Below, piece by piece: positions 2,602 through 62,916 of a stretch of 64,000 bases of DNA (the first letter of the stretch is position 1; every line of letters starts with the position of its first letter). The stretch is from Minisyncoccota bacterium (GTDB lineage Bacteria; Patescibacteriota; Minisyncoccia; Phycocordibacterales; UBA9973), in the NCBI GenBank assembly GCA_039915165.1, contig JBDSNU010000007.1, forward strand, positions 113,812 through 177,811. Direction: 5' to 3'. The notes under the pieces were generated by a model. The model was given only the letters and a program-made list of their open reading frames with translations. It made no database searches and was not told the origin of the DNA. The position numbers were made by a program, and so were the translations under genes.

Positions 2602-3684
2602 TTACTGTTTAAATCTTATTTGGAAATTTAAATTCATGAAATTTTCACCATTACTTTCATAAATTTTACCGAATTCATGTCTGCCTGAACTGGGAGTATC
2701 AAAGTATGTATTCTTGTAGAGATAATCTTTAAACTCTTCTCGATTATACACATTATAACAAACCACATCACCATCATTTTTAACAATAATATAACCACCA
2801 TAAGCTTGCATATTTCCTTCCCATATTTTACTTGGCACCATACCCAGAGCAACCGCAACTAAAAACTCTTTCATTTTATGAACAAAAAAGGTTTTAGTTA
2901 TATTTAGTTTGTTATTTAAAGTTTCTTCTTTTTCAATAACATCAACCAGATCTTCAACTGATTTTCCTTTTCCTTGATAATAAGCAAGCAGAACCTCACT
3001 TAACATTTGTGGAAAAATGGAATCTGTCATTTTAAGATTTGATTCAAATTTCTTACTAGATGTTTCAATAAAATTTAATTTTACGCCATTATTAATTATC
3101 GTATTTATTCTATCTTTTATCTTAGATTTTGTTTTAATTGCATTTATTTCTTCAATATTAGGTATTCCTCCTTTTATTAAATAAATAAAATTAGTATGGC
3201 CTGAGGCATTTAATAATGTCGAACCACCTCCAAGCATAGATTTAACGCTAAATCCTAACTTTGTATCTTCAGGGGATATTCTATCTTTTACTGTCATAAT
3301 TAGATCTTCTTTTTTATAACTTGAAGCCTTAACTCTTGTACAATACATTTCGTTCATTAATTCTTCGGCAGTATTCGAAACAAAAGAAGATGAGGATGCA
3401 TTTTTTATCTCGTCAAAAATTTTAAGTGCGCATATCTTCAACTTTTCAGCTTTTATAACTGACAATTGTTCTCCATTTTTGATAATAGAAACTGAGTTTG
3501 AATCATTTGCTATTTCATATATGTATTTTTCTCCAGGGAATTCTTCTCTTATAATATTTAAAACTTCTAAGTATTTTTCTGGAATTCTATTTCGAGCAGA
3601 ATCAGCTGCAAATAATTTACCTTCTGAAAGAATTTTTACTAGTGCATAAAATTCACTCCATTCTCCCTTATTTGCTTTTATCAT
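2602..3684 (-). CDS. Type II restriction endonuclease, probably HpaII family.
   Basis: 360-aa ORF immediately downstream of the m5C MTase, overlapping it by 17 nt. The N-terminal KGEWSEFYALVKILSEGKL is recalled as the HpaII-family signature. Codon usage is AT-rich. Confidence 0.5.
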   Translation of the reverse strand: MIKANKGEWSEFYALVKILSEGKLFAADSARNRIPEKYLEVLNIIREEFPGEKYIYEIANDSNSVSIIKNGEQLSVIKAEKLKICALKIFDEIKNASSSSFVSNTAEELMNEMYCTRVKASSYKKEDLIMTVKDRISPEDTKLGFSVKSMLGGGSTLLNASGHTNFIYLIKGGIPNIEEINAIKTKSKIKDRINTIINNGVKLNFIETSSKKFESNLKMTDSIFPQMLSEVLLAYYQGKGKSVEDLVDVIEKEETLNNKLNITKTFFVHKMKEFLVAVALGMVPSKIWEGNMQAYGGYIIVKNDGDVVCYNVYNREEFKDYLYKNTYFDTPSSGRHEFGKIYESNGENFMNLNFQIRFKQ

Positions 3685-4552
3685 ATTCTTTCATTGACTT
3701 AATTATTTGTTTTGCAACAGCTTGAATTGCTGGAACTGCAACAGAATTTCCGAGCTGTTTCATCGCCTGAGCTTCTGAAACTGGAAATTGGTAGGTTTCA
3801 GGAAAACCCATCATTCTTTTACCTTCCTCAACTGTAATTCTTTTTGCCTTTCCATCTACTAAATAAGTATCCCAGTTTCTACGATCATGTAACCCAGATC
3901 CTCTTCCTCCAACACGTAATGTGTAACCAATATCTTTTTCACAATATGCGCCAAAAATATTAGACATGGTCATTGTTCTTTCTATTGGTTTTGGAAACTC
4001 AAATTTTATTTCTTTATTTTTAAAACCAATCATAAAAAGTCGCGCCCTATGTTGAGGAAGATTAAAGTCAGAAGCTCTAACTATTTTATAATAAAAAGAA
4101 TATCCCAGCTCTTCTTCAATAACTCTTTTTACTTCAGCGAAAGTATTACCGTTATCATGCTTTAAGAAGTGACTTACATTTTCAAGAAAAAATGCTTCTG
4201 GTCTTTTTTCTTTTAAGATTTTTACGATATCATAAAACAAAGTTCCTCGAACATCATCAAATCCTTTTTTCTTTCCCGCATGACTAAATGGCTGGCAAGG
4301 AAACCCTCCAGTGAGGATATTAAAATCGGGTATATTTTTAGGATCAACTTCTTTTATATCTCCAACAAAATTATTACCTTCAAAAATCCACGGTTCTTTC
4401 TTTTTGAAGTTTAGCTGATATGTTTCTCTTGCCTTTTGGTCCAGCTCAGATACAAAGACACATTCAGCTCCAGCATTTGAAAATGCAATATTAAAACCTC
4501 CAATACCCGCAAATAGATCTATAAATTTTATTTTAGAGTTATCTTGTTTCAT
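3668..4552 (-). CDS. DNA (cytosine-5)-methyltransferase.
   Basis: Motif I FAGIGGF, motif IV GGFPCQPFS and motif VI ENV (FFLENVSHF) are present. The C-terminal LGNSVAVP is also present. Confidence 0.85.
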   Translation of the reverse strand: MKQDNSKIKFIDLFAGIGGFNIAFSNAGAECVFVSELDQKARETYQLNFKKKEPWIFEGNNFVGDIKEVDPKNIPDFNILTGGFPCQPFSHAGKKKGFDDVRGTLFYDIVKILKEKRPEAFFLENVSHFLKHDNGNTFAEVKRVIEEELGYSFYYKIVRASDFNLPQHRARLFMIGFKNKEIKFEFPKPIERTMTMSNIFGAYCEKDIGYTLRVGGRGSGLHDRRNWDTYLVDGKAKRITVEEGKRMMGFPETYQFPVSEAQAMKQLGNSVAVPAIQAVAKQIIKSMKEYDKSK

Positions 4553-4707: not shown

Positions 4708-5250
4708 ATGGATGAAAAATATATAATTTTTGAAGGTTTAATTGATCAACAGGCTTCCACCAAACTTGTTGATGCAATTAAGAGCCTGACTAACTCTGGG
4801 GCTACAAAGATAACGATTCTTTTTTCTTCTCTAGGGGGAAGTATTTACGAAGGATTTTTAATCGCTACACTGATTCAAAACTCCCGTATACCAATTAAAA
4901 TTCATGCAACAAACCATATTGACTCAATTGCAAATGTCATCTTTCTTTCAGCAAAAGAAAAAACTGCGGAGTCTCATGCAAAGTTTTATCTTCACGGGGC
5001 AGCTATCCAAGGAAATTTTGATGAGAAAGCACTATTAGAAAAACTATCAGAAATCAGAGCACAAAATACTAGAATTGCTAACTTCGTTTCGGAAAATTCA
5101 TCAATTATATTTAAAAAAGTTCAGGAGATGATGAAAGCTGGAACTACACTATCGACACAAGAAGCCCATAAAAAACAAATGGTTGATAGAATTGAACATT
5201 TAGAAATTCCTGCTTTTGCAGAAAGAATTGAAATAATTTACGTTAACTAA
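4708..5250 (+). CDS. ClpP-like (S14 family) serine peptidase-like protein, standalone.
   Basis: It aligns to ClpP around INSPGG (FSSLGGSIYEG). A candidate triad is Ser in NHIDSIANV, His in KFYLHGA and Asp in QMVD. Confidence 0.55.
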   Translation: MDEKYIIFEGLIDQQASTKLVDAIKSLTNSGATKITILFSSLGGSIYEGFLIATLIQNSRIPIKIHATNHIDSIANVIFLSAKEKTAESHAKFYLHGAAIQGNFDEKALLEKLSEIRAQNTRIANFVSENSSIIFKKVQEMMKAGTTLSTQEAHKKQMVDRIEHLEIPAFAERIEIIYVN

Positions 5251-5617
5251 AATTTTTCTTCCATAAAGCTATTAACACCCTCAAATTGCTCTTATACCTC
5301 AATTCCACATGCCATTTCTTATAGTTCGGTGATTGCTCACCTACTAGATCCCAAAATGCCTGAGAGTGATTGAATTGCTTTAAATGGCAAAGCTCATGAA
5401 TGATCAGATAGTCCTGGGCTTCTGGTTCTAGAAAGAGAATGCGGTAGCTGAAGTTTAGATTACCCTTACTAGAACAACTTCCCCATCGGGTTTTTTGGTT
5501 GCGAATAGAAACGCGGTGATAGGTGAAATTATAATACGCATTGAAGTGTTCCAAGCGCTCATGAACAAGGATGCGGGCCTGCTCTTTGTATTTATTGTAG
5601 AAGGTATTTCGAAGCAT
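5243..5617 (-). CDS. YgjP/DUF45 (WLM-like) zinc metallohydrolase.
   Basis: HExxH is present in IIHELCHLKQFNHSQAFW, the typical YgjP family motif. Confidence 0.7.
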   Translation of the reverse strand: MLRNTFYNKYKEQARILVHERLEHFNAYYNFTYHRVSIRNQKTRWGSCSSKGNLNFSYRILFLEPEAQDYLIIHELCHLKQFNHSQAFWDLVGEQSPNYKKWHVELRYKSNLRVLIALWKKNFS

Positions 5618-5659
5618 TGAGACCTAATAGTCCCATACTTTGAGGATTTTCAAAAGCAA

Positions 5660-6862
5660 ATGCAAATATGCTATGGTTGTGGGTATATGAAGGAATTCAC
5701 ATTTTCTCAGCCGGTGAACATTGATACATTGCCGGCCACACTTTCCCAGCTAACCGGGTCACCGATAATTACTGGGGGCACTATCGATATATTAAACAAT
5801 GGTGATGAATTTTTTCCGTCACTATATACAGATCTCGAGGGCGCCAAAACTTCCATTGAGTTCAGTGTATACATTTGGAAGAAAGGTGTAGTAAGCACCA
5901 AAGTATGTAACCTTCTGATACAAAAAGCAAAACAAGGTGTACAAGTAAGACTATTACTTGATAGTTTTGGCGCACAACATACACCTGCAAATAAAATTGC
6001 TGAACTTAAAAAAGCAGGCGGAATGGTAGCGTGGTATCACCCGTTAAAATTTGGACTATTAATGAAGTTTTTCAAGCGTAACCATAGTCGATCTATCACG
6101 ATAGACAATACAATCTCATATACAGGGGGCATGGCAATTGCAGACTATTGGCTTGGTCATGCACAAGATAAGAATCATTGGAGAGATATCATGTTTCGCT
6201 TGAAAGGCCCCATCATCCATTCTGTTCAAGAGGCATTTACAAATATCTGGACTAGTGTTACCGGAGAAATACTTGTCGCTTCCCCCATCACTACACCGCC
6301 TGGAAATGAAATGCTTTCAATTGGTTATGTGAACGCATCTCCTGACCAAGATATGGAGCAACTATCTGCATTTTTCGCTACCACTATTGCTGCTGCCCGA
6401 GTATCAATAGATATTGTTACTCCTTATCTTATTCTTCAACCTCGGTTGAAAAAACAACTTATCAACGCAGTTCAACGAGGTGTGACAGTTCGCCTCTTAC
6501 TCCCCGGAAGATATATTGATTCAAAGATTGTGCAAGCAGCAAGTCAATATTCGTACAATGCATTACTCAGAGGCGGAATAAAAATTTTTGAATACAAGCC
6601 AACTATGATCCATGCAAAACTCTTGGTAGTTGATGGAGTATGGTCAATAATCGGTTCTGCCAATATCGACACGCGATCAACTTTTTATAATGTTGAAAAC
6701 AATATTGGTATAGCTGATGAGAAGTTTGCGGCCAAATTACAATCTATCATTCATGTTGAGATTACTAATGCTAGAGAAATTAAGGTCCGTAGATGGCAGC
6801 GTCGCTTTATATTTAGGAAAATCGCAGAATTTTTTGCTACCATTCCTGACGAGCAGTTTTAA
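5660..6862 (+). CDS. Phospholipase D / cardiolipin synthase family protein (ClsB-like, no TM segment).
   Basis: Second HKD motif is HAKLLVVDGVWSIIGSANID. The first motif is degenerate (NHSRSITIDNTISYTGGMAIAD). The alternative start is MKEF at 5687. Confidence 0.7.
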   Translation: MQICYGCGYMKEFTFSQPVNIDTLPATLSQLTGSPIITGGTIDILNNGDEFFPSLYTDLEGAKTSIEFSVYIWKKGVVSTKVCNLLIQKAKQGVQVRLLLDSFGAQHTPANKIAELKKAGGMVAWYHPLKFGLLMKFFKRNHSRSITIDNTISYTGGMAIADYWLGHAQDKNHWRDIMFRLKGPIIHSVQEAFTNIWTSVTGEILVASPITTPPGNEMLSIGYVNASPDQDMEQLSAFFATTIAAARVSIDIVTPYLILQPRLKKQLINAVQRGVTVRLLLPGRYIDSKIVQAASQYSYNALLRGGIKIFEYKPTMIHAKLLVVDGVWSIIGSANIDTRSTFYNVENNIGIADEKFAAKLQSIIHVEITNAREIKVRRWQRRFIFRKIAEFFATIPDEQF

Positions 6863-8566: not shown

Positions 8567-11500
8567 TTAGCTGCGTTTTTTGCTGAATACTGCCATTATA
8601 ACTAGTGCGCCAATAGCTAATAGTCCGAGAACTATTACCTTACCGGGACCAAGTGCTGTAACACCAGCAGCGCTGGCACTGAGCCCTTTCAAGGTTACTT
8701 CCGGATCTGACATTATGGTTCCTTCATCTGGAGCAGGAGCAGTAAGTATTGTGGTTGATGTAGTTTTTTTCTTGAGCGGAGTTTTTATGTCTTCCGCATC
8801 AGGCAAAATATCATCACTGGACTCATTATTTACATTTTCTTCTGATCCATCTGTATCAGTAGGAGTAACTGTACTACTTTGCATCGATACTGAAACATTA
8901 TTTCCCGACGAAGTTGCAATGGGAGCAGTTGTTGTGGTTGGAATAATCGTTGAAGTACTACCACCACTCTCAACTTTTAATTGTTTTATTTCTTCCGTAT
9001 TTCCGGCCCTATCGATTGATACAAAATAAACTGTACTACCTACACTTGTTGCAAAAGGCTTATCATATATTTGCCATACAATATTGTCAGTAGAATATTT
9101 TGTATTAAGGATGCCCGCATTATCATCTGTAGCTTTCAATGTAACTAAGCCATCAGCATATGTCGCTGTTGTAATGGGTACGACACTATCTTTTGCTTGC
9201 TTCTCTTCTAGAGATGATGATGCTTCAACAGTACGATCAATGGTGCCGTCATTATTATCATCAATAGTAATACTTGGTGAGCTATTTTCTTTACTTAAGG
9301 TAATCGTACCAAGTGTTTTGTCTGATAATAATGGCACTGCATGATAGTATGTTTGATGCGTTACAATATCAGATTCATCACTGTGCGAAATATACATGTC
9401 ATACAATCCAGCGGATTGTGCCTGCTGGGTTATTTTATATTTTGGACCAGTAGGTAAAAATACAAATTTTTCATCATCAATAACATCATACTGCACATTA
9501 GGAATTCCATACTCTATTCCTCCATCAATAGTTGGTCCAGTATGTCTACCTAATTCATCGTACACATTAAGCATAACTGGACTGTGCACATCAATAGTAT
9601 CCCCAGCCAAATTACATTGAGTCGACATAGTTGATATATCATTATTGGTAGTAGGCGCCTTGCCATCAAGTATTTGTACTATTGTGTCTTGAATTACAGG
9701 CAGTGATGCCACTGTGCCGTGCGAACCTGCGTGGACATAATAATTGTGAGCACCATTTTCAGCGACCGCGCTACTAACAGGAACTACGCCATCACCTGAA
9801 CCGTATAATAATCTATGCTCAGGGATTAACTTAAATCCAGTTAATGTTAAAGATTGTTCTTTTGTTAACGTAAAACCAGTAATTGTTTTTGTATTACCAC
9901 ATCCAGCAAAATCATACTTATCAAATGTCGAAGTCATTGTATCAATTTTGTCATGAAGTTGGTGGGCAAATGAAAACATGTTGTCATTTCTCCCATCCGC
10001 GATCATATACTTTTCGATATTGTCCTGACTCATATCATGTATTACTTGCGTTCTATCTTGAATGTAATGACTAACACCATCGATATATTTTTTGCTCGGT
10101 AAAAGTTCATACACTGAGGGCATATTTTGTGTAATAGTTTTCACTCGCTGCTCATTTAGTACGGGGACTTGTAATAACGAACCGAGAGAAAATCTAAAGC
10201 CCATATCATCACCATACATCAATGTTTTGAATGTTTTCGGAGCGCCGAGATGTGGCACTGCGATATAAAATAGATGATCAAGCGGTGCGGTTGGGTTTTC
10301 AGAAATATACTCTTTCACTAATAATCCGCCCATACTATGCGCAATGATGGTTACCTTTTTCTTCCCGCTCTTCAGTAATGCTTTTGCGATCATGTCTTTC
10401 AACAAGGATTGATTAACTGTATTACTTAGTCGCCAGTCATAGGGAAAGACAAATAAGTTAGCACCTTCGATATATCCTTTTGTATGTAAGGCATTTATCA
10501 TACTATTAAATATATCTACCGATGATGCTGAGCGAACAATGTCGCCTACTACCATTGGGCGCACTGTACTTGGAATACCGGTTTGTAATAACTCTAGATC
10601 ATTTAAATAACTATCTGTCGGACTTAGTGCAAGCTTAGCAATATTGGGCCATAACTCACTCTTATCTCCATAGTCTTTTGTTAAGATCGAACCGGTTATT
10701 CCTGGAACTATAATTATAGGATTTTGATCAGCTGTCGGAGGAGTAACAACGGGAGCCTCTGTTGTTGTCGGCTCATCTTTCATCCCTAACCATGGTTTAT
10801 AGATAACCTCAGTAGTGTTTTTTGTAATAATTGAATCACCTTTTCCCCCACTATTACTTTTAATGGTTGGCCCTGAATCACTGCCCCAGCCGTTATTTTT
10901 TATAACTGCTTTTACCATATCGATAACTGATACCCCTATAGTATTTCCATGAAAATAATTGTTGGTAATATTTTTAATTACAGGATTATTTAGTACGAGT
11001 GCAATTTTACTCGTAGTGAAATCAGAATTCGTAATAGTCAGATCACCTTGCTGCTCTGCAATAATAGCTGTTCCCGAAATATCTTTAAAATTACTGTGAG
11101 TAACACTTACCCCGGAAGCGGTTGCCTTAATAGCACTGCATAGATTGTGGAAATTGGTATATTTAATTTTACTATCAGCATTTGCTGCAAGAATGATAGA
11201 TGACATGTTGAGTGGACAAGTGCCATCTCCATAAACATTTACTGGTGATGCCTCCGTACCATTCACCACCAATGTGCCTCCTTGAGCTACATTAATACTA
11301 AACCCATCTTGAATAAAAACAGTAATACCATAATCTATAGTCAGCGTACCGCCATTCAATACCGTAATACCAAACACATAATATTCTCCATCGCGGGAAT
11401 TAAAATGGTAATTTTGACCTTGTAAAATATCACCACCATAATTCCACCCTTTAAACCCTTTCCCTAAAAACGTTGTGCCTGAATGTGTAAATGTGCCGTA

Positions 11501-13105: not shown

Positions 13106-14482
13106 TTAGGCAAGTACACTAGCGATGCGTGCAAGGGTCATCTCTTTTCCTAAAATACTAGCAACTTCAAATGGATCCGGTGATTTTTCTTTTCCTGTAA
13201 GCGCAACACGAAGTGGCCATAATACATTTCCCTTTCCTTCTTCATCGGCATATTCAATCACCGCAGCTTTTATACTGTCGTAATTCCATTCTGCTTCAGA
13301 TACTGGCGCCAATAAGTTACCAACGCGAGCAAGGTACTGTTTTGTTTTGATCAACCCATCAGTGTCTTCTTTCAATGTTTTCCATACCAACATTTTTTCA
13401 TCAACGAGAGGTTGTTTGAAGAAGTAATCAAACTCCCCTTCGACAGAATCAGGGCCTTCGGCATTTCCTAATAACATTTTTATATCCGAGAATTTTTCGA
13501 TGCGATCGCGAAGCAATTGTTCAATCTTTTTTAGCATTTCATGACTAGGGACAGTATCTTCGATCCATGATGGTAACCATGCATGTGCATGATCCCAAAA
13601 TGTTTTTTGATCAAACTGTTTAATATATTCACGATTAAACCAGTCTAACTTTTCAGGATTAAACATTGCGGGAGATTTTTGTACCTTACTGAGATCAAAT
13701 ATTTCAATCAACTCATCCTTGGTAAATAATTCTTGTTCAGTGCCGGGATTCCAGCCAACCATGGCAACCATGTTAAACAGTGCTTCGGGTAGATATCCTA
13801 AGTCTCGGTATTCTGTAAGTGCTAGTGCCCCTTTACGCTTTGAGAGTTTTTGTTTGTCTGATCCTAATACCAAAGGAAGGTGTGCGTATACGGGAGTCGG
13901 CGCACCAATAGCCTTTTGAATGAGTATTTGACGAGGTGTATTTGAAACATGATCCTCACCGCGAACTACATGAGTAACACCAGCATCAAAGTCATCAACG
14001 ACAACAGCAAGATGAAAAAGCGGTTCACGAATATTTTTTGCAATAACAAAATCGCCAAGGTCTTCAGTGTTCATAGTTATATTACCCTTTATTTCATCAA
14101 AGAATGTTACATTTCCATTTGGGTTTTTGAAACGTACAATTTCTTTAATTACACCCGAACCATCCTTTGCTTCTTCTTTTGAAATGTATGCAGATCCATC
14201 TTCAATCATTTTTTCGAGCACCGCTTGATGACGTTCAACATTTTCTGACTGACGAATAAATACATCATGCTCAAGACCCATCCATTCCAGACTTTCCATA
14301 ATATTTTCTTCGTACTCTTTTTTTGAACGCTCCTTGTCCGTATCTTCGATGCGTAATACAAATGTACCCTTATGTTTACGTGCATAAAGGTATGAGAATA
14401 TTGCTGTTCGGTATGCACCTGAGTGTAATTTCCCTGTCGGACTTGGTGCAAATCTTGTTACTACCTTTTTAGTATTTTCCAT
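13106..14482 (-). CDS. gltX: Glutamyl-tRNA synthetase.
   Basis: RFAPSPTGKLHSGA (HIGH-type) and KLSKRKGA (KMSKS) are present, at a length of 458 aa. Confidence 0.9.
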   Translation of the reverse strand: MENTKKVVTRFAPSPTGKLHSGAYRTAIFSYLYARKHKGTFVLRIEDTDKERSKKEYEENIMESLEWMGLEHDVFIRQSENVERHQAVLEKMIEDGSAYISKEEAKDGSGVIKEIVRFKNPNGNVTFFDEIKGNITMNTEDLGDFVIAKNIREPLFHLAVVVDDFDAGVTHVVRGEDHVSNTPRQILIQKAIGAPTPVYAHLPLVLGSDKQKLSKRKGALALTEYRDLGYLPEALFNMVAMVGWNPGTEQELFTKDELIEIFDLSKVQKSPAMFNPEKLDWFNREYIKQFDQKTFWDHAHAWLPSWIEDTVPSHEMLKKIEQLLRDRIEKFSDIKMLLGNAEGPDSVEGEFDYFFKQPLVDEKMLVWKTLKEDTDGLIKTKQYLARVGNLLAPVSEAEWNYDSIKAAVIEYADEEGKGNVLWPLRVALTGKEKSPDPFEVASILGKEMTLARIASVLA

Positions 14483-41563: not shown

Positions 41564-41635
41564 TTCCCCTGTAGCTCAGCGGTAGAGCGGTCGCCTGTTA
41601 AGCGATTGGCCGTAAGTTCGAATCTTACCGGGGGA
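41564..41635 (+). tRNA. tRNA-Asn (GTT).
   Basis: Acceptor stem TCCCCTG/CGGGGGA. D arm GCTC-AGCGGTA-GAGC. Anticodon arm GTCGC-CTGTTAA-GCGAT. T arm GTAAG-TTCGAAT-CTTAC. Confidence 0.75.
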
Positions 41636-41698
41636 GCTAAGTGTTTATCGTGAAAGTGACCTATCCGCGTCCGGATAAGCCATTTTCTAGCGAGTTAA

Positions 41699-41759
41699 GT
41701 AACACACCAAAAAAGCCACAATGACTTAACCCACAATTGTGGCTTTTTTGGTGTGTTAC
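41699..41759. terminator. 24-bp perfect-stem hairpin between tRNA-Asn and the ABC/IS chimeric gene.
   Basis: gtaacacaccaaaaaagccacaat-(13 nt)-attgtggcttttttggtgtgttac. Confidence 0.7.
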
Positions 41760-41762
41760 TTT

Positions 41763-42602
41763 TTAATCAGGCAAGAATCCACCTGACTGCATTTTCCATA
41801 AATGAGCATACTTTCCATTCTGTTGAAGCAATTCTTCATGCGTACCATCCTCAACAATTTTTCCACCTTCCACAAATACAATACGGTCCATTGATTGAAG
41901 TGTCGAGAGTCGGTGAGCAATAGCAATGACTGTCTTCCCTTTCATTAGAATGGTTAATGCTTCTTGTACCTTTCCCTCACTTTCGCTATCAAGGGCACTC
42001 GTTGCTTCATCGAGAATAAATAGCGGGCTGTTCTTAAGTATGGCTCGAGCAATTGCAATACGCTGTCGTTGTCCACCCGAAAGCTTCACGCCCCGTTCAC
42101 CGACAACAGTGTTGTAGCCTTTTGGCAATGTTGAAATAAAGTCATCGGCATAGGCCATCTTTCCTGCTTGTTCGACTACTTCTCTTGAAGCCTCGGATGA
42201 GCCGTAGCGAATGTTTTCAGCAATCGTCGTATGGAAGAGCGATGTATCCTGAGAAATAAAAGAAATATGAGAACGGAGAGAATCTTGGGTCATTGTTGTT
42301 ATATCCACATCATTAATTTTTATTGTTCCACTTTGTGGGTCAAAGAACCTCAATAAAAGATTTATCGCCGTAGTCTTTCCCGCGCCGCTCAAGCTTGGCT
42401 TGAAGCCGCATAGCAGATGAACGTGGTCACCGTCGGTGCCGATGGCTTCGAACTCGATGTCGTAGCGTTCCTGGATGGAGCGGGAAATCTCCAGAATCGC
42501 TCTGTCTATCCGTGGCGTCAGCAGCGCCTTGCGGTACTTTAACGGAAAGACTATGTGATAGTGGGTGTCGTACGTGCTGTGGTTTGCGCTCTTGTTCGCC
42601 AT
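41763..42602 (-). pseudogene. Chimeric ORF. An IS200/IS605 TnpA N-terminal fragment (about 64 aa) is fused in frame to the C-terminal nucleotide-binding domain of an ABC exporter whose TMD is missing.
   Basis: The N-terminus HYHIVFPLKYRKALL...GDHVHLL matches the TnpA HuH motif. Walker A is LSGAGKTT, the signature is LSGGQRQRIAIARA, Walker B is ILDEATSALD and the H-loop is IAHRLST. GC content changes sharply at about 42405. Confidence 0.7.
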
Positions 42603-42700
42603 GGTTCGAGTCTATATGAAAACCTTAGGTTTTCATACTTTCCGAAAAGGAAACCCCGCAGCAAGCTGCGGGGAATTTGGGGGTTTAAAGACTAATATAA
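42410..42700 (-). mobile_element. IS200/IS605-family remnant: left-end hairpin plus the 5' part of tnpA.
   Basis: The subterminal hairpin ccccgcagc-aa-gctgcgggg lies upstream of the tnpA start. The segment is high-GC relative to its flanks. Confidence 0.55.
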
Positions 42701-42815
42701 CATCTAAATCTTTTACTTCCTGATATCTATTTTTTACCTCATCAAATAGTTCTTTGTATCTTTCAAAACCAACATTCATAGATTAATTATTATATAAATT
42801 GTACGTCTTAATGTA

Positions 42816-43103
42816 TTAGGACAGGTGAACCAATCGCTTATCCGTGATGGTTTTATGAAGCTTGTCGCGCTCGATTGTTCGCGCTATTTCAGGTATTCCT
42901 AGAGCTGAGGATGGAATATCACAAATCATATTACCGTGAAGATCAATGATCGCTCCTTTTTGAACAAGCGTGGTCTCGTTCCAAAAAGAATCGCCAAGAT
43001 TAAATTTTTGCATGATTCGCAGACCGTTACCATTCTTGTCCTGAAACACTGAAGACGTTTCTGTGCCATGCAGCGTCCGTTCCACTGCGCCTCCAACAGG
43101 CAC
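42816..43103 (-). pseudogene. Orphan C-terminal fragment of a paralog of the 43367-43996 gene (low GC).
   Basis: It shares the SSVFQ[DG]K[ND]G segment and a 28-bp near-identical nucleotide patch with the upstream gene. Confidence 0.45.
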
Positions 43104-43366
43104 GCGCTGTATTTTATGCGGGAGCGTCGTACTCCACTACTGCATGACACCAGATATATTTTTTTAATATGTATCCTTCACGCACCACCCTGACGCAGAC
43201 CTCGACCTGCGCCAATCCCGATGTGATCGGATAGAAACCTTCGCCCGAAGCCGTGACCGCAGGCATGTCAAAAATCTCGGCTTTAGTATATCAAAATAAA
43301 ATTAAACGCAAAAAGAGCCCAAGGTACAAAGTATCCAAGGGCTCAATAGTTTTAGAGGCAAAATCC

Positions 43367-43996
43367 TCAAGGTTTTTCTGCGAGAAACATCCAGTCAACG
43401 TCAGCAAACCAGTGGCCATCAACAACCACCAGGCTAAGCCTGCGCCTGCCATCGTCACGACTGACGCACAGGAAGCAACGGCGACCATCCTTGCCCTGAA
43501 ACACTGAACTTTCAGCGTTTTCTGCGGCGACAAAGTCTTTGCCGGCAAGTTCTGCGGGAAGCTTGTTTTCGGGAACGGCAGCCATGGCACCGGTTAAGTA
43601 GTTTGGTGCACTTTTGCATAAGGTCAGGCCGAACTTGTTCACGTACGCTTCCTCGTCGCCACTGTCCACGTTTTCGGTGACAGGGACGAAGTAGATGCGC
43701 TTTGCGCCAGCTGCTTCCAGTAACGGAATGCGGTCGTGATCATCGCTGATCCAATCGTACACGCTGTCGTAGTTTCCTTTCTCGATCGCCAGAGCGATGT
43801 TATTAATCGGATCTACAACAACAGAATACAAATCCTGAATCTTCGCTTCGCGGTCGGCCAATAGCTTGCCGAGGTTTTTCAGATCGTCTTCGGTGAGGAA
43901 TTCGATCGCTTTGTCGGAACCTTTGGCGTCCGTGATTCCTTGCCTCACCAAGACTGCGTAGTCTGAGTCGGCAATGATAAGAATTGTTTCGGGCAT
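43367..43996 (-). CDS. Hypothetical protein in the high-GC island. The probable start is MPETILIIADSDYAV at 43996; the ORF track extends it to 44134.
   Basis: 210-aa ORF at about 52% GC. No confident family assignment. Confidence 0.4.
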   Translation of the reverse strand: MPETILIIADSDYAVLVRQGITDAKGSDKAIEFLTEDDLKNLGKLLADREAKIQDLYSVVVDPINNIALAIEKGNYDSVYDWISDDHDRIPLLEAAGAKRIYFVPVTENVDSGDEEAYVNKFGLTLCKSAPNYLTGAMAAVPENKLPAELAGKDFVAAENAESSVFQGKDGRRCFLCVSRDDGRRRLSLVVVDGHWFADVDWMFLAEKP

Positions 43997-44155
43997 TAGT
44001 ATGTTTTTACAGTGTTTTGAAAAGAAATACGTTTTTAGTATCATAGCATGAATTGAGTATAAAGTCAATGATTTAAAGGCTATGCCCAAAAAGCCTCGTT
44101 TTTTCGCCACGACTACACATTTTCCCCGATCCAAGCTAAGGTACCCAAACCTTCC

Positions 44156-44623
44156 TTAACAAAGCCCCATGCCTCCATTCTCCCTCACCCAGTCCACCCA
44201 CACGTCAAAGTCCCTGTTATTCTCCATGATCGCAAGCGACCTGATGACCGCCATCGCAAACGCATCGGCCAGGTCGTCATGTCCCTCGATGCCAAATCCG
44301 GTCAGTTGGCTGACGAGCTCCTCCGCGCCATGCCTCGGGAACTGGATAATTCCTGTCTGTATGTAGTGCGAGGTCATGGCAAGGCGCGAGCGCTTGTCGG
44401 TCGTGTTCTTCACGCCTTCCACCTGTACTCCTGATCCAGAGAGCTGGTCCGCATAGATTTCCTGAAAGCCGTTCGACTCGATCACCACCAACGGTTCCAT
44501 GTCATACGGCAGGTTCTTTGCGAGCATCCGTATCGTCCTCGTTGTTTCGGGATACGGCATTCGCTTGTTGATTGGATTTGGCAGGATGTACATTTTGATG
44601 TCCCTGTCCTTCTGATGCAGCAC
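44156..44623 (-). pseudogene. Phage terminase large subunit C-terminal nuclease domain fragment (ATPase domain missing).
   Basis: The C-terminal HDDLADAFAMAV motif and RNaseH-like nuclease domain pattern are present. Only 155 aa remain. Confidence 0.55.
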
Positions 44624-44680
44624 GCCCGTGACGACTGCCGAACAGTGCGGTCTTTGCCGATACTCAACAGCAAATCAGCG

Positions 44681-45085
44681 CTAGGATTCTTCATGATGTT
44701 CTTCGGACACAATGCCCGCCAATTTCAATGCCTGCTCGACCAATACCTTTTGTTCCGGAGACATCTCGTGAATGGTTTCCAATCTTCCATCAATCTGTAC
44801 CTTTGTTTTGTAGTCGCCATGGTGGTGCTTGAGCCAGTACATGATCGCAGCCAGATTACGATCCTTGACCGCGCCGATGAGCTGGGACTCTGCCACGTCA
44901 TTGATGAGCAAGCGTCCTTCGCTGACTGCCTGGTCGGCTGATGTGGCGAATGCCTCGTCCTCCGCTTTCCATCGGTAAAAAGTTGCTCGTGAGATATCGA
45001 GCTTTTCGCAGGCGATCTGAACAATCGGTGTTTTCCGCAGTTGCTCCAGAAGCAGAGCTTTGTTTTCTTCGGTGGTTTTATTCAT
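44681..45085 (-). CDS. Phage terminase small subunit-like HTH protein.
   Basis: IACEKLDISRATFYRWKAEDEAF is the HTH typical of terminase small subunits. The gene sits directly upstream of the terminase large fragment. Confidence 0.55.
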   Translation of the reverse strand: MNKTTEENKALLLEQLRKTPIVQIACEKLDISRATFYRWKAEDEAFATSADQAVSEGRLLINDVAESQLIGAVKDRNLAAIMYWLKHHHGDYKTKVQIDGRLETIHEMSPEQKVLVEQALKLAGIVSEEHHEES

Positions 45086-45638
45086 AGAGCAATGTGGGCT
45101 GTATCTTCGTCAGTTTCTCAAATCGATCCATGACGGTCTGGCAGTATTCAATATCAAGCTCGACTCCAAGACACACTCGGTGGGTTTGTTCGCACGCAAT
45201 GAGTGTTGAACCGCTCCCAAGAAAGCAGTCGTAGACAACTTCATTAATATTTGTGCTGTTGAGAATGAGATTCCGCAGAAGCGGTATCGGCTTCATGGTC
45301 GGGTGCAGACTGCTTTTCGTCGGGCGAGGATAGAAGAGATCGCACCAGACGAAGACATGCGTATCCATCTTTGAAATCTCCAAGCCGTTGCCGATTATGT
45401 TCTTCAGAAATGTTTTGTACTCATCGTCGGGCTTGCTGTCATCGACTGACCCGCCATAGTGCTGCCTGCGTCCGACGCCCTTGTTGTAGTCGAGAGAGAT
45501 GTTGTACGGCGGGTCGAAGTACAGCATGGAGACGTTCACGCAGGTGCTTTCTTTTTGTTCGAGGCGAACCCCGGCAATGCTGTTACCGGGGTTGGGAGCA
45601 AATAAAAAAGCTCCATCCTTTACCCAACCTCGTTGCAA
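45078..45638 (-). pseudogene. Phage-type N6-adenine/N4-cytosine DNA methyltransferase (beta-class order: DPPY before FxGxG), probably N-terminally truncated.
   Basis: Motif IV is LYFDPPY and motif I is CFLGSGSTLIA. High GC. Confidence 0.6.
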
Positions 45639-45639
45639 G

Positions 45640-45877
45640 AGAGCTGGAAAAATCAGGAATGGTTATAGAACGACTGGAGCCATGGAAAGGCAAAGTTACA
45701 TTCAAAGATGTGGGGGCCCTTGTATTTATGCTCAAGGCTGTGCCATGGACTGTAGGTGATTTCAGTGTCATTAAACACCGAGAGGTATTAGAAAAGCTAA
45801 AAAAAGATATTGATAAGAACGGAAAATTAACTTTTGCTGAGAGTAAGTATTTAATAATTGCAAAGAAAAAAGTCTAG
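45640..45877 (+). pseudogene. C-terminal remnant of a native class I SAM-dependent methyltransferase, cut by the high-GC insertion.
   Basis: The low-GC tail ...ERLEPWKGKVTFKDVGALVFMLKAVPWTVGDFSV resembles the C-termini of type-11 methyltransferases. The upstream part of the ORF is out of context and high-GC. Confidence 0.45.
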
Positions 45878-45895
45878 TTTCCTGCTAGTAAAGTC

Positions 45896-45923
45896 TTTCG
45901 AACATCGTCCAGGGTTCGGAGCA
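45896..45923. repeat. Copy 1 of a 27-28 nt imperfect-palindromic direct repeat.
   Basis: tttcgaacatcgtccagggttcggagca. Confidence 0.85.
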
Positions 45924-46240
45924 CTTGACAATGTATTTAAAATACATATTGTTTATATGGGACTCAAAAACAGTTAGTATATTTAAAGAACTTAATGGCA
46001 TGTTAATCTCGACATGGTCATTAATTAGTAAGGCGGTTCTTACCCTTTTGCCAAAAGTATGCTCAATCAATGAGCGAAATTGAAAATAAAGGATTCTTTA
46101 GGCGCCTCTTAGAGAATTTCTTTGAGATTAAAGAAATTAAAATAGATAAGGAGAATAATCTGTCCTGTCTATTCCCTCGGTTACCACAAAGCCCACCTCT
46201 CACAATGTGATGTTAAGGGCTTTTTTATTTGACCAAGCAG

Positions 46241-46268
46241 TTTCGAACATCGTCCAGCGTTCGGAGCA
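46241..46268. repeat. Copy 2 of the same repeat.
   Basis: tttcgaacatcgtccagcgttcggagca. Confidence 0.85.
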
Positions 46269-46593
46269 TTTGAGCGAAAACAAAAGTACCCTTCACTGGG
46301 TATTTTTGCTTTTCCGAAAATGCGAACCCCGGGAAGTGGTTACCGTGGGAGTAATAAAAAAACCACCCGTCGTATATCATCGAATCGGGTGGTTTAGAAA
46401 AGAATTATCCCCTACTACTTACGGGAAATTGTACTGGTTTTCCAGGTACTACACTGGCTGAAGTTTTTTTATCTTTTGCAGCTTTTTGTAGCTCGTAAAA
46501 ATTTACCGCATCTTTTCCAGTTAGGATCGGTGTCTCTTTAAGTGGTTTTGCCATAACTTTTAACTATTTTCATTACTTTAACACAAAAGTTGT

Positions 46594-46620
46594 TTTCGAA
46601 CATCGTCCAGCGTTCGGAGT
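46594..46620. repeat. Copy 3 of the same repeat.
   Basis: tttcgaacatcgtccagcgttcggagt. Confidence 0.85.
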
Positions 46621-46669: not shown

Positions 46670-47242
46670 ATGATGTCACAATATGAGGTCTTAGCATTTA
46701 AAAATTCTAAAAGTTGGCGACAGTGGCTCTTGAAGTCCCATAGCAATACTGAGGGGGTCTGGCTGCGAATATATAAAAAGGCTTCCGACATCTCTTCGGT
46801 TTCCTATGCAGAAGCCCTTGATGATGCTTTATGTTTTGGCTGGATTGATGGTCAAAAGAAAAAATATGACGACGTATCCTATATTCAGAAATTTACACCA
46901 CGACGAGCACGCAGTATGTGGTCAAAGCGCAATATAGAACATATTGAAAGACTAACTAATGATAAGCTGATGACCTCAGCAGGAATTACTGAGGTGGAAA
47001 AAGCTAAAGCCGATGGTCGCTGGGAAGAAGCGTATGACTCGCCTAGTAATATGATGGTACCTGACGATTTCATTACTGCAGTAAAGGCAGACAAAAAAGC
47101 TTTTGCGAATTACCAATTACTTAAAAAATCAGACTTATACAGTATTGGTTTTAAGCTACAGACTGCGAAAAAAGCAGAGGCCCGAGAAAGAAGATTCCTC
47201 TCTTTACTTGAAAAGTTACATAAAGGCGAATCATTACATTAG
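46670..47242 (+). CDS. YdeI/OmpD-associated (OmdA) family protein.
   Basis: The pattern W..WL..H......W........SYAEALDDALCFGWIDG is characteristic of this family. Confidence 0.6.
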   Translation: MMSQYEVLAFKNSKSWRQWLLKSHSNTEGVWLRIYKKASDISSVSYAEALDDALCFGWIDGQKKKYDDVSYIQKFTPRRARSMWSKRNIEHIERLTNDKLMTSAGITEVEKAKADGRWEEAYDSPSNMMVPDDFITAVKADKKAFANYQLLKKSDLYSIGFKLQTAKKAEARERRFLSLLEKLHKGESLH

Positions 47243-47317
47243 AACGTTATTGTTTTTTCAATACTGTCCTACCAAAAATAGCATTGTCTTTTACCCCAAA
47301 GCTACTATAATTTAATC

Positions 47318-47689
47318 ATGACAAAAGGAACATATGTAGACGGGTTTGTAATACCAATAAAGACGAAAGATGTTGCGGCTTATAAAAAGATGGCGGTATG
47401 GGGTGCAAAGATGTGGAAAAAACATGGGGCACTTGAATACTTCGAATGCATAGCTGATGATTTAAGTGTGGTAAACGGTATGGGTCAGGGCTTTGAAAAG
47501 ATGGCTAAACTCAAGGAAGATGAGACTGTTATATTCTCTTTTATTGTTTATAAGTCAAAAGCACAGCGTGATCAAATAAATAAAAAAGTGATGACAGATC
47601 CTACTATGAAAGATTTTGACGAAAAATCTATGCCAGTTGATATGAAGCGTTTCGTAATGGGAGGTTTTAAGATTTTAGTTAAAAACTAA
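47318..47689 (+). CDS. DUF1428 family protein.
   Basis: GTYVDGFVIPIKTKDVAAYKKMA...HGALEY...DQINKKVMTDP matches DUF1428. Confidence 0.55.
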   Translation: MTKGTYVDGFVIPIKTKDVAAYKKMAVWGAKMWKKHGALEYFECIADDLSVVNGMGQGFEKMAKLKEDETVIFSFIVYKSKAQRDQINKKVMTDPTMKDFDEKSMPVDMKRFVMGGFKILVKN

Positions 47690-47720
47690 AGTTAGCTATT
47701 CAAACAAACATATTTTTAAA

Positions 47721-48176
47721 ATGAAAACTTTACTTGATACCTCGACCAGAGATGAACTAATTGCCAGAATAAGAAATGTTAACGAGCGCAGTGCTGCGCA
47801 ATGGGGCAAAATGAATGTGTCTCAAATGTTGAAGCACTGCACAATTGCCGATGAGTTGTACTTAGGTAAAACAACATACAAGCAAAACTTTTTTGGGAAA
47901 TTGTTTGGTCAAATGGCAATGAAGAATTTATTAAAAGATGAAAAGCCGTTGGGTCGCAATACCCCTACTATCCCCCAGCTTAAAAACTTGGAGAGTGACA
48001 GCAACATCGAAGTCGACCAAAATAGACTGATTGATTCTGTACAAGAATACGAGCATTTCTCAAGGCAACTCATAGTGCACCCTTTTTTCGGCAACATGAC
48101 TCGAGAACAAATAGGAATGATGGCGTATAAACATATTGATCACCATCTCAGACAGTTCAACGCGTGGTGTTTTTAG
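47721..48176 (+). CDS. DUF1569 (DinB_2-like) family protein.
   Basis: WGKMNVSQMLKHC...HPFFGNMT...KHIDHHLRQF is present. Confidence 0.55.
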   Translation: MKTLLDTSTRDELIARIRNVNERSAAQWGKMNVSQMLKHCTIADELYLGKTTYKQNFFGKLFGQMAMKNLLKDEKPLGRNTPTIPQLKNLESDSNIEVDQNRLIDSVQEYEHFSRQLIVHPFFGNMTREQIGMMAYKHIDHHLRQFNAWCF

Positions 48177-48240
48177 ACTTTGGACAAAATAAAAAACCTC
48201 TCACTATATGAGGGGTTTTAAATTATGATACTATTATCCT

Positions 48241-48681
48241 ATGGCTACAATAAATCCTTGGATCAACTTTAACGGCAATGCTGAAGAAGCATTCACATTT
48301 TATAAATCAATATTTGGTGGTGAATGTACAAAAATTATTCGCTTCAAAGATCTCGCAAGTACTGAATTTCCAGTACCAGAAACAGAGGCGGAAAAAATAA
48401 TGCAGATCTCATTACCCATCGGTACGGGCAGCGTACTGATAGCAAATGATGTGCCTGCATTTATGGGAACAGTAAGTGAACAAGAAAATCGCAGTAAAAT
48501 TTTAGTTACTGCCGATAGTAAAGAAGAAGCAGATGCTATATTCAACGGTCTTTCAGAGGGAGCAGAAGTAGAAGGCCCAATCGGTGAAAGTCCTTGGGGT
48601 AGCTATGCTGGAACACTAAGAGATAAGTACGGTATCGAATGGGTAGTAGAATTTTCAGCTATTGATCAACGTCCTGAGTAA
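48241..48681 (+). CDS. VOC/glyoxalase-fold PhnB-like protein.
   Basis: The N-terminus INPWINFNGNAEEAFTFYKSIFGG and the C-terminus GPIGESPWGSYAGTLRDKYGIEWVV match the PhnB-like family. Confidence 0.6.
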   Translation: MATINPWINFNGNAEEAFTFYKSIFGGECTKIIRFKDLASTEFPVPETEAEKIMQISLPIGTGSVLIANDVPAFMGTVSEQENRSKILVTADSKEEADAIFNGLSEGAEVEGPIGESPWGSYAGTLRDKYGIEWVVEFSAIDQRPE

Positions 48682-61355: not shown

Positions 61356-62618
61356 TTATTGCACTTCTCCCAAATAAGGTAACGGTAGACCGTAGACATA
61401 TTTATCAGTAGTGTGGCGAAGCATGCTTTTCTGTAAGCGGTCCTTATTGGATGGCATCGTAGAGAGTACACTCAGACTATTTTGTCCAAACTTTTTGCGT
61501 ATAGCATCAACAGTGTGCATTAACCTCCCTTCCTCGGTAGTGTTTTTTTGCTCACCAAAAAGATCTTCTTGAATATGGATGTCTTTGCGCAACCCCCAGA
61601 CAGTAATTCCAGTAGCTTTGTATCGAATACCTTTTCGTAATAACAATATAACTTGTTCTCGAACAATCGCTGTTATATCTAATACGTTGTTGGTATAACG
61701 TGGCAAAGGAATCGCTATACCCGAATATTTACGGTCAGTGGTTTTAACATAAATACTAAGACCGTTGGTAAATAATCCTTGCTTGCGCATACGAGTAAAT
61801 ACCACATCAGCATTGTGCAGTAATTCGGCGGCGATATATGAGGGGTCTATTGAGGCTGGCATAAATGACCGTGTTGCCTGCAGCGACTTGGACTGAGAAC
61901 GATCATTAGAAACATCAAAACGGTTATGGCCCTTCATTTCATGCCATAATTCTTGAACAGGTGCATTAAAGGTTTCCATAACGCGCTGCTCTGGCCACTG
62001 GGTAAATTCATATGCGGTAGCTACTCGTAATGTTTGGAAGCGTCGAGATAGTCGCCAACCAATACCCCAGACAGACTCTATGCTGGTTTTTTGCAGTACT
62101 TCTTTTTCATCATCAATAGTGACTACTGTGGCGCCATCGGGTTTTTGATATTTTGAAGCCAACTTTGCCAATACTTTTGTGCGAGCCATGCCGAAAGAAT
62201 ACGTTAATCCAATCTGTAATTGGATTTTTTTCTTCAATGCAATAACCCACCCATACACTTGATCTTTGGACCATGCTTCTGGCAAACGTACTAGTGCAAA
62301 ACATTCATCAATGCTGTATTTTTCTAACACTGCAACTTCTGCATCCAGCAATGTACAAAGTTTAAGTGCATAATGGTCATACAATTCGAAATGAGAAGTT
62401 AAGATCGCCACTTGGGGAAATTGTTCTTTAATTTTGAACATAGGCATGCCACGAGTAATACCTAGGCGCTTCGCTTCATATGTCATAGCCATTGCAATGC
62501 CACGCTCTTCACCAACTACTACAGGTTTGCCGTGCAAATGAGGAAAGCGCGCGATTTCACAATATGCAAAAAAGCCGTCGCCATCGATATGAAGTATCCA
62601 TTCTTTTTTCTTAAGCAT
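61356..62618 (-). CDS. umuC: Y-family DNA polymerase (UmuC / Pol V catalytic subunit-like).
   Basis: The N-terminus is ILHIDGDGFFAYCE. The DEC region is SIDECFALV. The gene overlaps upstream umuD by 8 nt. Confidence 0.8.
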   Translation of the reverse strand: MLKKKEWILHIDGDGFFAYCEIARFPHLHGKPVVVGEERGIAMAMTYEAKRLGITRGMPMFKIKEQFPQVAILTSHFELYDHYALKLCTLLDAEVAVLEKYSIDECFALVRLPEAWSKDQVYGWVIALKKKIQLQIGLTYSFGMARTKVLAKLASKYQKPDGATVVTIDDEKEVLQKTSIESVWGIGWRLSRRFQTLRVATAYEFTQWPEQRVMETFNAPVQELWHEMKGHNRFDVSNDRSQSKSLQATRSFMPASIDPSYIAAELLHNADVVFTRMRKQGLFTNGLSIYVKTTDRKYSGIAIPLPRYTNNVLDITAIVREQVILLLRKGIRYKATGITVWGLRKDIHIQEDLFGEQKNTTEEGRLMHTVDAIRKKFGQNSLSVLSTMPSNKDRLQKSMLRHTTDKYVYGLPLPYLGEVQ

Positions 62619-62916
62619 ACTTTCTCACCACTGCTTTCACTACAGCAGTAATACTATAAGAAGTTTTGGCTTGAATAGTATCAAAGTATTTCATTTTCCA
62701 GACACCATCGATTGCAGCAATAACAATGTCACCGCGCTTAGCTTCTACTGCTCTCTCAACAATAACAAAATCTCCTTCACAGATCCCTGCTTCTTGCATC
62801 GCATTGCCACTAACACGCAACATAAATGATGCTTCCCTGTTATCGATCAAATACGCATCCAGAGTGGTGCGGTCTAAAAGATTTTCTTCAGCTGGTGTGG
62901 GAAATGAGTTTTTCAC
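62611..62916 (-). CDS. umuD: UmuD-prime-like S24 peptidase-fold protein; the N-terminal segment containing the UmuD self-cleavage site is absent.
   Basis: The protein aligns to E. coli UmuD from FPSPA onward: SFPTPAEE...RVSGNAM (Ser) ...GDIVIAAIDGVWKMKYF (Lys). The region including the Cys-Gly cleavage site is absent. The start is a GTG. Confidence 0.7.
   Translation of the reverse strand: MKNSFPTPAEENLLDRTTLDAYLIDNREASFMLRVSGNAMQEAGICEGDFVIVERAVEAKRGDIVIAAIDGVWKMKYFDTIQAKTSYSITAVVKAVVRKYA

Follow-up and report, generated by a model that had tools for sequence, protein, structure and literature searches.

Stacked repeats downstream of a tRNA-Asn gene in a Minisyncoccota bacterium: probable attR-side relics of large serine recombinase elements

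The tRNA-Asn locus

Three copies of a short repeat are found downstream of a tRNA-Asn(GTT) gene in the genome of a Minisyncoccota bacterium. They lie within a 64 kb stretch of contig JBDSNU010000007.1 (assembly GCA_039915165.1, positions 113,812 to 177,811) that was analysed as a whole and is referred to here as the window; coordinates given without the handle of another locus are positions in it. The copies sit 4.3-5 kb downstream of the tRNA gene and have the same orientation. We suggest, with a probability of roughly 0.8, that they are attR-side relics (the P half-site) of large serine recombinase (LSR) elements that were stacked at the 3' end of tRNA-Asn(GTT). The locus is made up as follows (ORF, open reading frame; aa, amino acids; nt, nucleotides).

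41565..41637, plus strand: tRNA-Asn(GTT) gene (ARAGORN and Rfam); its 3' end ...AAGTTCGAATCTTACCGGGGGAGC is read as the chromosomal attB-type (B) half-site of the hotspot
41638..45563, no strand: decayed prophage-like island with a GC content of about 50% (genome, about 40%; composition, Pfam, PHROGs)
45564..45599, plus strand: first 'type-2' site, GCGAACCCCGG..TTACCGGGG..GGGAGC, a degenerate version of the tRNA-Asn 3' part
45604..45873, plus strand: cargo remnant, the C-terminal part of ORF 45371-45877; no family match
45874..45922, minus strand: repeat copy 1, putative attR relic; 26-nt core TTCGAAC..GGAGC at 45897-45922; minus-strand reading LRTLDDVRKTLLAGN and stop
45923..46224, no strand: cassette-like segment A; promoter-like site 45925-45952 and doubtful 46-aa ORF 46070-46210; no homologue
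46225..46267, minus strand: repeat copy 2, putative attR relic; core 46242-46267; minus-strand reading LRTLDDVRNCLVK and stop; joined at GGAGC/A to naive tRNA-Asn flank
46268..46321, plus strand: flank that follows copy 2, ATTTGAGCGAAAAC.., with a hairpin-forming stretch (five-way alignment, blastn)
46322..46352, plus strand: second 'type-2' site, GCGAACCCCGGGAAGTGGTTACCGTGGGAGT, a pseudo 3' part of tRNA-Asn
46353..46577, minus strand: cassette-like segment B; 49-aa ORF 46405-46554 (minus strand), then a hairpin and T-run at 46395-46350; no family match
46578..46620, minus strand: repeat copy 3, putative attR relic; core 46595-46620, ending in GGAGT; minus-strand reading LRTLDDVRKQLLC and stop
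46670..48681, plus strand: four small accessory genes (Pfam: OmdA/YdeI, DUF1428, DUF1569/DinB-like, VOC/glyoxalase)

The island contains a chimeric ORF with Y1_Tnp and ABC_tran matches, a fragment of a terminase large subunit, a terminase small subunit and fragments of N6/N4 DNA methylases. No integrase was found between 41638 and 45563. In the chimeric ORF (41763-42602, minus strand, 279 aa), an IS200-type Y1 transposase contributes its N-terminal half and an ABC-transporter ATPase its C-terminal part; this junction of two gene fragments lies at the tRNA-proximal end of the island.

The repeated motif

On the plus strand the copies have the form TTTCGAACATCGTCCAG[G/C]GTTCGGAG and are found at 45896-45921, 46241-46266 and 46594-46619, with start-to-start distances of 345 and 353 bp. 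The original prediction, which was made from the sequence of the window, had described three repeated copies about 350 bp apart, and this count is borne out: a search of the 64 kb window with up to 3 mismatches returned just these three copies (0 in 100 shuffles), and an nhmmer profile made from 40 related copies again found only three. The conserved unit is longer than first reported, at about 38 nt, with the consensus ..AAACAGG-TTCGAACATC[G/C]TCCA[NN]GTTCGGAGC-A; a short form of the motif is TTCGAACATCGTCC..GGAGC. The segments that separate the copies show no similarity to each other.

On the minus strand, all three copies translate as L-R-T-L-D-D-V-R-x-x-L.. and then a stop, with 5-7 residues between LRTLDDVR and the stop codon. 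Past this core the tails are unlike (KTLLAGN, NCLVK and KQLLC, each followed by a stop), and the copies are therefore regarded as independent relics and not as products of a recent local duplication. It had been argued that the motif falls in different frames in each copy and must be noncoding. There is indeed no long ORF across the window copies, but they have this minus-strand reading in common, which is interpreted below as what is left of an integrase gene's 3' end. The companion claim, that there is little coding potential between the copies, holds for 45923-46241 but not for 46361-46594, where a plausible ORF of 49 aa is present. The hairpin and T-run behind this ORF (46350-46395) were read by eye from the sequence; they are missing from the terminator scan, the loop being over the limit of the scan.

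The motif was also thought to be an imperfect palindrome. An inverted pair, TTCGAAC / GTTCGGA around a 10-nt spacer, is present, but it is weak. The folding energy of the motif is no better than that of shuffled sequences (z = -0.1 to -0.7), no covariation or compensatory change was seen in the alignment of 40 copies, in 11 of which the innermost pair is broken, and an Rfam search of the repeat region gave no family match even at E<=1. The palindromic character of the motif is incidental and without structural support.

Occurrence in related genomes

In a scan of one genome per species, the motif was recovered from just two metagenome-assembled genomes (MAGs) of Patescibacteria, L002 and L004, and from two unrelated alphaproteobacterial coding sequences. 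Both MAGs share the gene order of the window, with pyruvate kinase followed by a small membrane protein and then tRNA-Asn. About 15 more low-GC contigs with the motif were obtained from a metagenome scan. Arrays of small, variable cassettes that are punctuated by the motif downstream of tRNA-Asn were seen in about 20 metagenomic contigs of relatives. By local fuzzy search each contig carries 1-6 co-oriented copies (e.g., L004, L017, L020, L037, L041/42 and L045), and wherever a contig includes tRNA-Asn the copies are downstream of it and co-oriented, the sole exception being one copy in L026 (see section on the proposed origin). The spacing of the copies in these relatives ranges from 221 to 2732 bp. 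The units between them measure 0.2-2.9 kb and hold 0-4 small unrelated genes in either orientation, examples of the cargo being VOC proteins, an acetyltransferase and an EcoRI restriction-modification pair; several of the cassette genes have terminator-like hairpins behind them, as read from the sequence. One cassette, with a single gene of 141 aa, is flanked on both sides by the motif in L002 and in L004, where its neighbours differ.

No copy of the motif was detected in viral contigs (three scans, with strict and relaxed motif patterns), and blastn of the region gave no match among GenBank phages; the element is thus not represented in those collections. Matches to the 23-nt core in high-GC alphaproteobacteria (L001, L003, L006 and others) were discarded as coding coincidence. 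The L003 match, for example, falls in an asparagine synthetase-like ORF encoding ..EPWTMFE.., and coincidences of this kind contaminate pattern scans.

The tRNA-Asn gene of L002 (3654-3923, minus strand) carries in its anticodon loop a group I intron (Rfam RF00028, 79 bits). ARAGORN misses this tRNA because the intron interrupts the gene.

Large serine recombinases at tRNA-Asn

The tRNA-Asn loci of relatives were sampled via homologues of pyruvate kinase. LSR genes encoding proteins of 490-522 aa with Resolvase, Recombinase and Zn_ribbon_recom domains lie right at tRNA-Asn in L051/52, in L053/54 and on the contig of P0030. At L055 an LSR gene is found inside an island at tRNA-Asn, and the methylase and small-terminase fragments of the window island are homologous to this LSR-bearing element and occur in the same order. 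LSRs also abut tRNA-Asn in two unrelated backgrounds, L058 (L058/59) and L061. Homologues of the L051 enzyme in the database number more than 1500 at E<=1e-30. Another of these proteins, P0126, matches the C-terminal structure of the A118 integrase and the catalytic domain of TP901-1, and shares about 27% identity with known serine integrases of phages, e.g., that of phiFC1. In their Resolvase, Recombinase and zinc-ribbon composition, and in the position of the motif at the junction of element and chromosome, the systems of the relatives resemble those of the serine integrases A118/LI, TP901-1, phiC31, Bxb1 and phiFC1. The recombinase that the original prediction proposed to look for on the contig is absent from the 64 kb window itself, but related genomes encode one at the tRNA junction, with sequence matching the motif at the distal junction.

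The LSR ORFs overlap the 3' end of the tRNA by 12-15 nt and stop there, ending in ..LL/PR or ..LL/RG and a stop codon. The distal junctions of three intact LSR elements of 8-9 kb (L051, L058 and L061) have the form ..CCAATCAATCG-TTCGAAAATCGTCC-N8-GCGAGC, where the element ends, and their 26-nt register is that of the window motif; the L058 junction is identical to the motif at 19 of 26 positions. When the LSR ORF is joined to the reverse complement of its own distal end, the frame runs on for 27-30 residues (..LLALADDFRTIDWATEYPYP..), and the tails reconstituted in this way match the C-termini of the database proteins P0224 and P0175. A tblastn search with the P0224 tail lands independently on the same distal junctions.

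Most of the database homologues end in tRNA-derived residues (integrated form), and a minority are long-tailed (free, attP form). The attP form is represented by P0126 (L066, 534 aa, ORF 5204-6808), which ends in ..LLQTWDDVRIEILLNK and a stop; the DNA of its gene at this point reads, in frame, TTCGAACATCATCCCAAGTCTGGAGC, which agrees with the window motif at 20 of 26 positions. P0160 (L067), likewise of the attP form, ends in ..LSIWDDVRQAIIEENS and a stop, and its gene contains TCGAACATCATCCCAAATAGAGAGC in frame. In L066 the motif is contiguous with the rest of the intact LSR ORF (P joined to P'), and L067 is similar. The loci with attP in the ORF have these coordinates.

L051: 8011-9567 with 367-460
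L058: 10001-11551 with 3016-3112
L061: 10001-11569 with 3330-3420
L066: 5204-6808

Integration swaps a C-terminal tail of 15-33 residues for 2-3 residues encoded by the tRNA (LLPR or LLRG, then a stop), and this swap may act as a regulatory switch. We know of no description of an attP that lies inside a serine integrase ORF with such a swap of tails, and a literature search likewise returned none.

A more distant LSR (L062-L064, 13383-15014) adjoins and overlaps a tRNA-Ala gene (13372-13445). The habit of integrating at tRNA genes thus seems to extend to other tRNAs in this LSR group.

Junctions and site architecture

The 3' end of tRNA-Asn together with its native flank reads GTTCGAATCTTACCGGGGGAGCATTTGAACGAAAAG. 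Strains with identical pyruvate kinase and identical tRNA-Asn part exactly after the GGAGC of the tRNA (...GGGGGAGC; ..CCGGGGGAGC; ..CTTACCGGGGGAGC). In L004, L045 and L049, ATTTGA[A/G]CGAAAA, a hairpin and a type-2 site come directly after tRNA-Asn, and the sequence that follows copy 2 in the window (46268..46321) is the one that directly follows the tRNA in these three contigs. We take this sequence to be the putative terminator of tRNA-Asn, and the B' side of the integration site in this orientation; in the terminator scan its hairpin (46287-46302) appears solely as a terminator-like site of the minus strand.

Copy 2 of the window, one copy in L024 and the attR of the intact L051 LSR element are all joined at GGAGC/A to native post-tRNA sequence. 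The crossover is therefore placed inside the GGAGC(A) core that the tRNA end and the motif have in common, the crossover dinucleotide being located no finer than within the shared GGAGCA. Copy 2 is a genuine right junction on native flank.

Twenty-four contigs carry the pyruvate kinase P0020 (L045-L050), and nearly all of them end 0.1-1.7 kb from tRNA-Asn. Those that run past the tRNA carry differing DNA, and the hotspot is heterogeneous within the population; this variability explains the assembly breaks there.

The original prediction had proposed a comparison of the motif with tRNA 3' ends, and the motif does share GGTTCGAA and GGAGC(A) with the end of tRNA-Asn. These two boxes are all that is shared and they are not contiguous (the alignment score was reached by 11 of 1000 shuffles). 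The distance from GGTTCGAA (the TTCGAA box) to the terminal GC is 13 nt in the tRNA but 18 nt in the motif; in the MAFFT alignment a gap of 5 nt falls at this offset of the box. In the sites of the LI integrase, the motif for the zinc-ribbon domain (ZD) sits 5 bp closer to the centre in the LSR attB than in attP (PMC3783163). The repeats resemble the LI sites in that the element half-site has the chromosomal recognition box 5 bp further from the crossover, and the motif is therefore assigned as the attP-type (P) and the tRNA end as the attB-type (B) half-site. The zinc-ribbon domain would then be expected to bind the TTCGAA box. The earlier reading of the motif as an att core needs correction: rather than duplicating the tRNA end, the motif is an element-side (attP-type) half-site and at the same time the coding tail of the integrase.

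In keeping with this assignment, conservation within the site is uneven. Within the TTCGAACATC part, silent codon positions are conserved as well; in the inner part variability peaks at third or synonymous positions, those of codons 3 and 5 being the most variable.

Proposed origin of the repeats

In this family of elements from the Candidate Phyla Radiation (CPR), attP lies within the 3' end of the integrase gene. According to the origin that we propose, recombination with the tRNA end would take place inside the GGAGC(A) core, where the integrase has its 'LL' codons, and would cut the ORF in two. The gene body would remain beside the tRNA and gain 2-3 end residues encoded by it, while the last 12-33 codons would be carried to the far junction of the element. 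Since attP is inside the integrase gene, each integration would strand a tail at the right junction (attR), and the window motif would be that stranded tail with its TTCGAA box. The same arrangement would explain the strong conservation of a 26-nt 'noncoding' repeat. Three related but non-identical elements might have been inserted successively at the one tRNA, each pushing the earlier junction outward, and might later have decayed to remnants of 0.3-4 kb. The window copies would have derived from LSRs with an LRTLDDVR tail; the order of the integration events and the way in which the integrase-proximal parts disappeared are likewise inferred.

Stacking of this kind is seen elsewhere. In L053 a new LSR element is inserted ahead of the short remains of an older one, and L061 has two stacked tails. 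The suggestion in the original prediction that the repeats are stacked att sites or the boundaries of small cassettes is supported, the copies being co-oriented downstream of tRNA-Asn and forming boundaries in many related genomes.

Several points weigh against this origin. Neither the 64 kb window nor any of the LSR-less arrays contains an LSR gene or a pseudogene fragment of one, so that the integrase-proximal parts must have disappeared entirely. A canonical LSR recombines only attP with attB, and not an occupied attL; a second integration therefore needs an extra assumption, such as a P' half that had decayed or an enzyme that tolerates a poor B' half. Inspection by eye of attL/attR in L051, L058, L061 and L066 revealed no evident inverted symmetry of P and P'. 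Among the relic copies, 52 of 168 changes (31%) are synonymous, against a random expectation of 32%; the case for a coding origin therefore rests on the intact genes and not on the relics, and no purifying selection is claimed. A protein search, which included the chimeric LSR C-termini with a window-type tail, found no intact LSR that ends exactly in LLRTLDDVR, the nearest intact tails being LLQTWDDVR (P0126) and LSIWDDVR (P0160). Finally, a perfect copy in L026 (9624-9650, plus strand) is upstream of, and divergent from, the tRNA-Asn gene (9054-9126, minus strand), where an inversion or a second target is possible.

Alternative explanations

The tRNA-Asn locus of these CPR bacteria (Paceibacteria) might go beyond a set of scars and be a locus of gene capture, in which the tail swap of an attP-in-gene integrase (possibly a switch of stability or directionality) is combined with stranded tails that can be used in trans, in an integron-like manner but with a serine recombinase. 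We consider this speculative and rather improbable.

Somewhat less probable again is a capture platform in the sense of an integron, in which the motif is a working attC-like site, the tRNA-Asn end takes the place of attI, and cassettes without an integrase are moved in trans, possibly by an LSR. Arrays of 2-6 co-oriented copies that bound units of 0.2-2.9 kb with 0-4 diverse genes and no recombinase remnants would agree with this, as would the breaking of many contigs at the locus, which suggests turnover at strain level. In these respects the arrays are like integron arrays and clusters of attC sites lacking integron-integrases (CALINs), where short co-oriented sites alternate with small diverse genes beside a fixed insertion point. 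The 141-aa cassette with its differing neighbours in L002 and L004 also fits, but its presence in both could be due to vertical inheritance. Against such a platform, the LSR-less arrays neither contain nor adjoin a gene for IntI or any other recombinase. An integron has an IntI tyrosine recombinase with attI and the cassette promoter (Pc) next to it, and no gene of this type was found in the window or beside the arrays (rough regular expressions and Pfam lists). Integron attC sites are 57-141 nt long, with R''-L''..L'-R' boxes, and keep their structure while the sequence varies, whereas the motif is 27-38 nt long and conserved in sequence, without structural covariation. A similarity to attC was tried and rejected, since the AAC/GTT triplets alone match, and length and pattern of conservation do not fit. 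Integron cassettes are mostly promoterless and co-oriented, whereas here genes lie in either orientation and several appear to have their own terminators. A conserved P' half, which is required in an LSR attP, is missing from the left ends of the cassettes. The motif is fully accounted for as the stranded tail of an integrase.

The derivation from LSR elements may also be compared with the classic use of tRNA genes by tyrosine integrases, for which they are well-known targets. An integrase of this type, or a Xer-type recombinase, would have duplicated the 3' end of the tRNA at each event and left direct repeats. The type-2 sites (45564-45599 and 46322-46352) resemble a decayed 3' part of tRNA-Asn, and such events may have occurred here too. 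For the repeats themselves, however, this explanation is very unlikely: the motif shares two boxes with the tRNA and no contiguous copy, no tyrosine recombinase was found in the window or the arrays (rough motif regular expressions on all loci, and Pfam lists that included ten candidate window ORFs), and every intact element found at the tRNA-Asn junction carries an LSR. The locus is similar to tandem tRNA islands, such as the tRNA-Asn islands of Enterobacteria and arrays of integrative and conjugative elements (ICEs) and cis-mobilizable elements (CIMEs), in the repeated use of one tRNA, the outward push, the direct repeats at junctions and the decayed interiors. Such tandem arrays are known to complicate the mapping of islands (PMC9580842). 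The classic arrays are due to tyrosine integrases and their repeat is a copy of the tRNA end, whereas here it is an element-derived half-site, or LSR coding tail, and the remnants are of 0.2-3 kb.

Even fainter is the case for a cis-regulatory or RNA element (a CGAAC-N10-GTTCG operator, a terminator or processing hairpin, or a tRNA-like minihelix), which is largely refuted. It would draw on a LexA-like S24 gene at 62611-62916, judged by eye from its translation, and on the A-rich, -10-like stretch before many copies. Folding and alignment give it no structural basis, as described above, and there is no Rfam match; genes near the motif lie in either orientation, the motif is confined to the tRNA-Asn hotspot and is not upstream of genes elsewhere in the 64 kb, and the A-rich stretch is the rest of the coding tail with its stop codon. 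The inverted CGAAC/GTTCG pair recalls the half-sites of the Gram-positive LexA box. These have a spacing of 4 nt, and the LexA box was rejected as a candidate for a motif that has a spacing of 10 nt and occurs at a single locus.

Least probable of all is a dispersed repeat of the REP (repetitive extragenic palindromic), MITE (miniature inverted-repeat transposable element) or PATE (palindrome-associated transposable element) type, or tandem duplication of a unit of about 350 bp, which the short, partly palindromic and evenly spaced copies (345 and 353 bp) and the IS200-type Y1 transposase fragment of the adjoining island might suggest, but with which three copies at one locus in 64 kb, the position of the motif downstream of tRNA-Asn in relatives, dissimilar segments between copies and a spacing of 221 to 2732 bp in relatives do not agree.

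Comparison with known systems

If the repeats are relics of LSR elements, the system differs from the known serine integrases in its target, which is the extreme 3' end of a tRNA, and in having attP inside the integrase ORF. It also differs from known LSR sites in that relic attR half-sites are stacked without an integrase remnant and P/P' symmetry is not evident. The nearest parallels to attP in an integrase gene are the integration-dependent immunity of mycobacteriophages of the BPs type and the Sulfolobus virus SSV1, in which the free and integrated forms likewise differ at the C-terminus. The integrases of these systems are tyrosine integrases.

The odd repeat is explained in this way as a set of ordinary junction scars at an integration hotspot, and not as a new repeat system. 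Scars of this kind are already known; the noteworthy feature is the attP inside the integrase gene. With the tRNA-Asn 3' end as attB and the P half of attP, sites are defined for a large CPR serine integrase family. Genetic tools for CPR bacteria are almost absent, and hence defined att sites might be of use. The difference between the C-termini of free and integrated integrases provides a testable idea about regulation. In addition, tRNA-Asn is identified as the main variable locus in these small genomes.

Type-2 sites and neighbouring genes

The type-2 sites have the form GCGAACCCCGG-N10-(T)ACCGGGGGAGC and are located just past the hairpin that follows the tRNA. The score of their alignment to the 3' part of tRNA-Asn was reached by 0-2 of 1000 shuffles. 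Apart from the two in the window, they are present in L004 (about 5365-5335), L045 (1476-1445), L049 and L051 (311-277 and 248-217). We regard the type-2 sites as probable scars left by integrations of another and older type.

The four accessory genes at 46670..48681 are of the same kinds as the cassette cargo in the arrays of L037, L041 and L005, and may represent older cargo or flank.

Another short conserved element, of about 55-90 nt and 83-94% identity, is unrelated to the motif and was seen in L024 (926-1011), L025 (642-728) and L031 (596-647 and 234-291). Towards the ends of the window there are an HpaII-type restriction endonuclease (Pfam) that adjoins an ORF resembling a cytosine-5 methylase, as judged by eye (2602-4552), and a pair of ORFs that resemble a Y-family polymerase and a LexA/UmuD-like S24 peptidase, likewise judged by eye (61356-62916).

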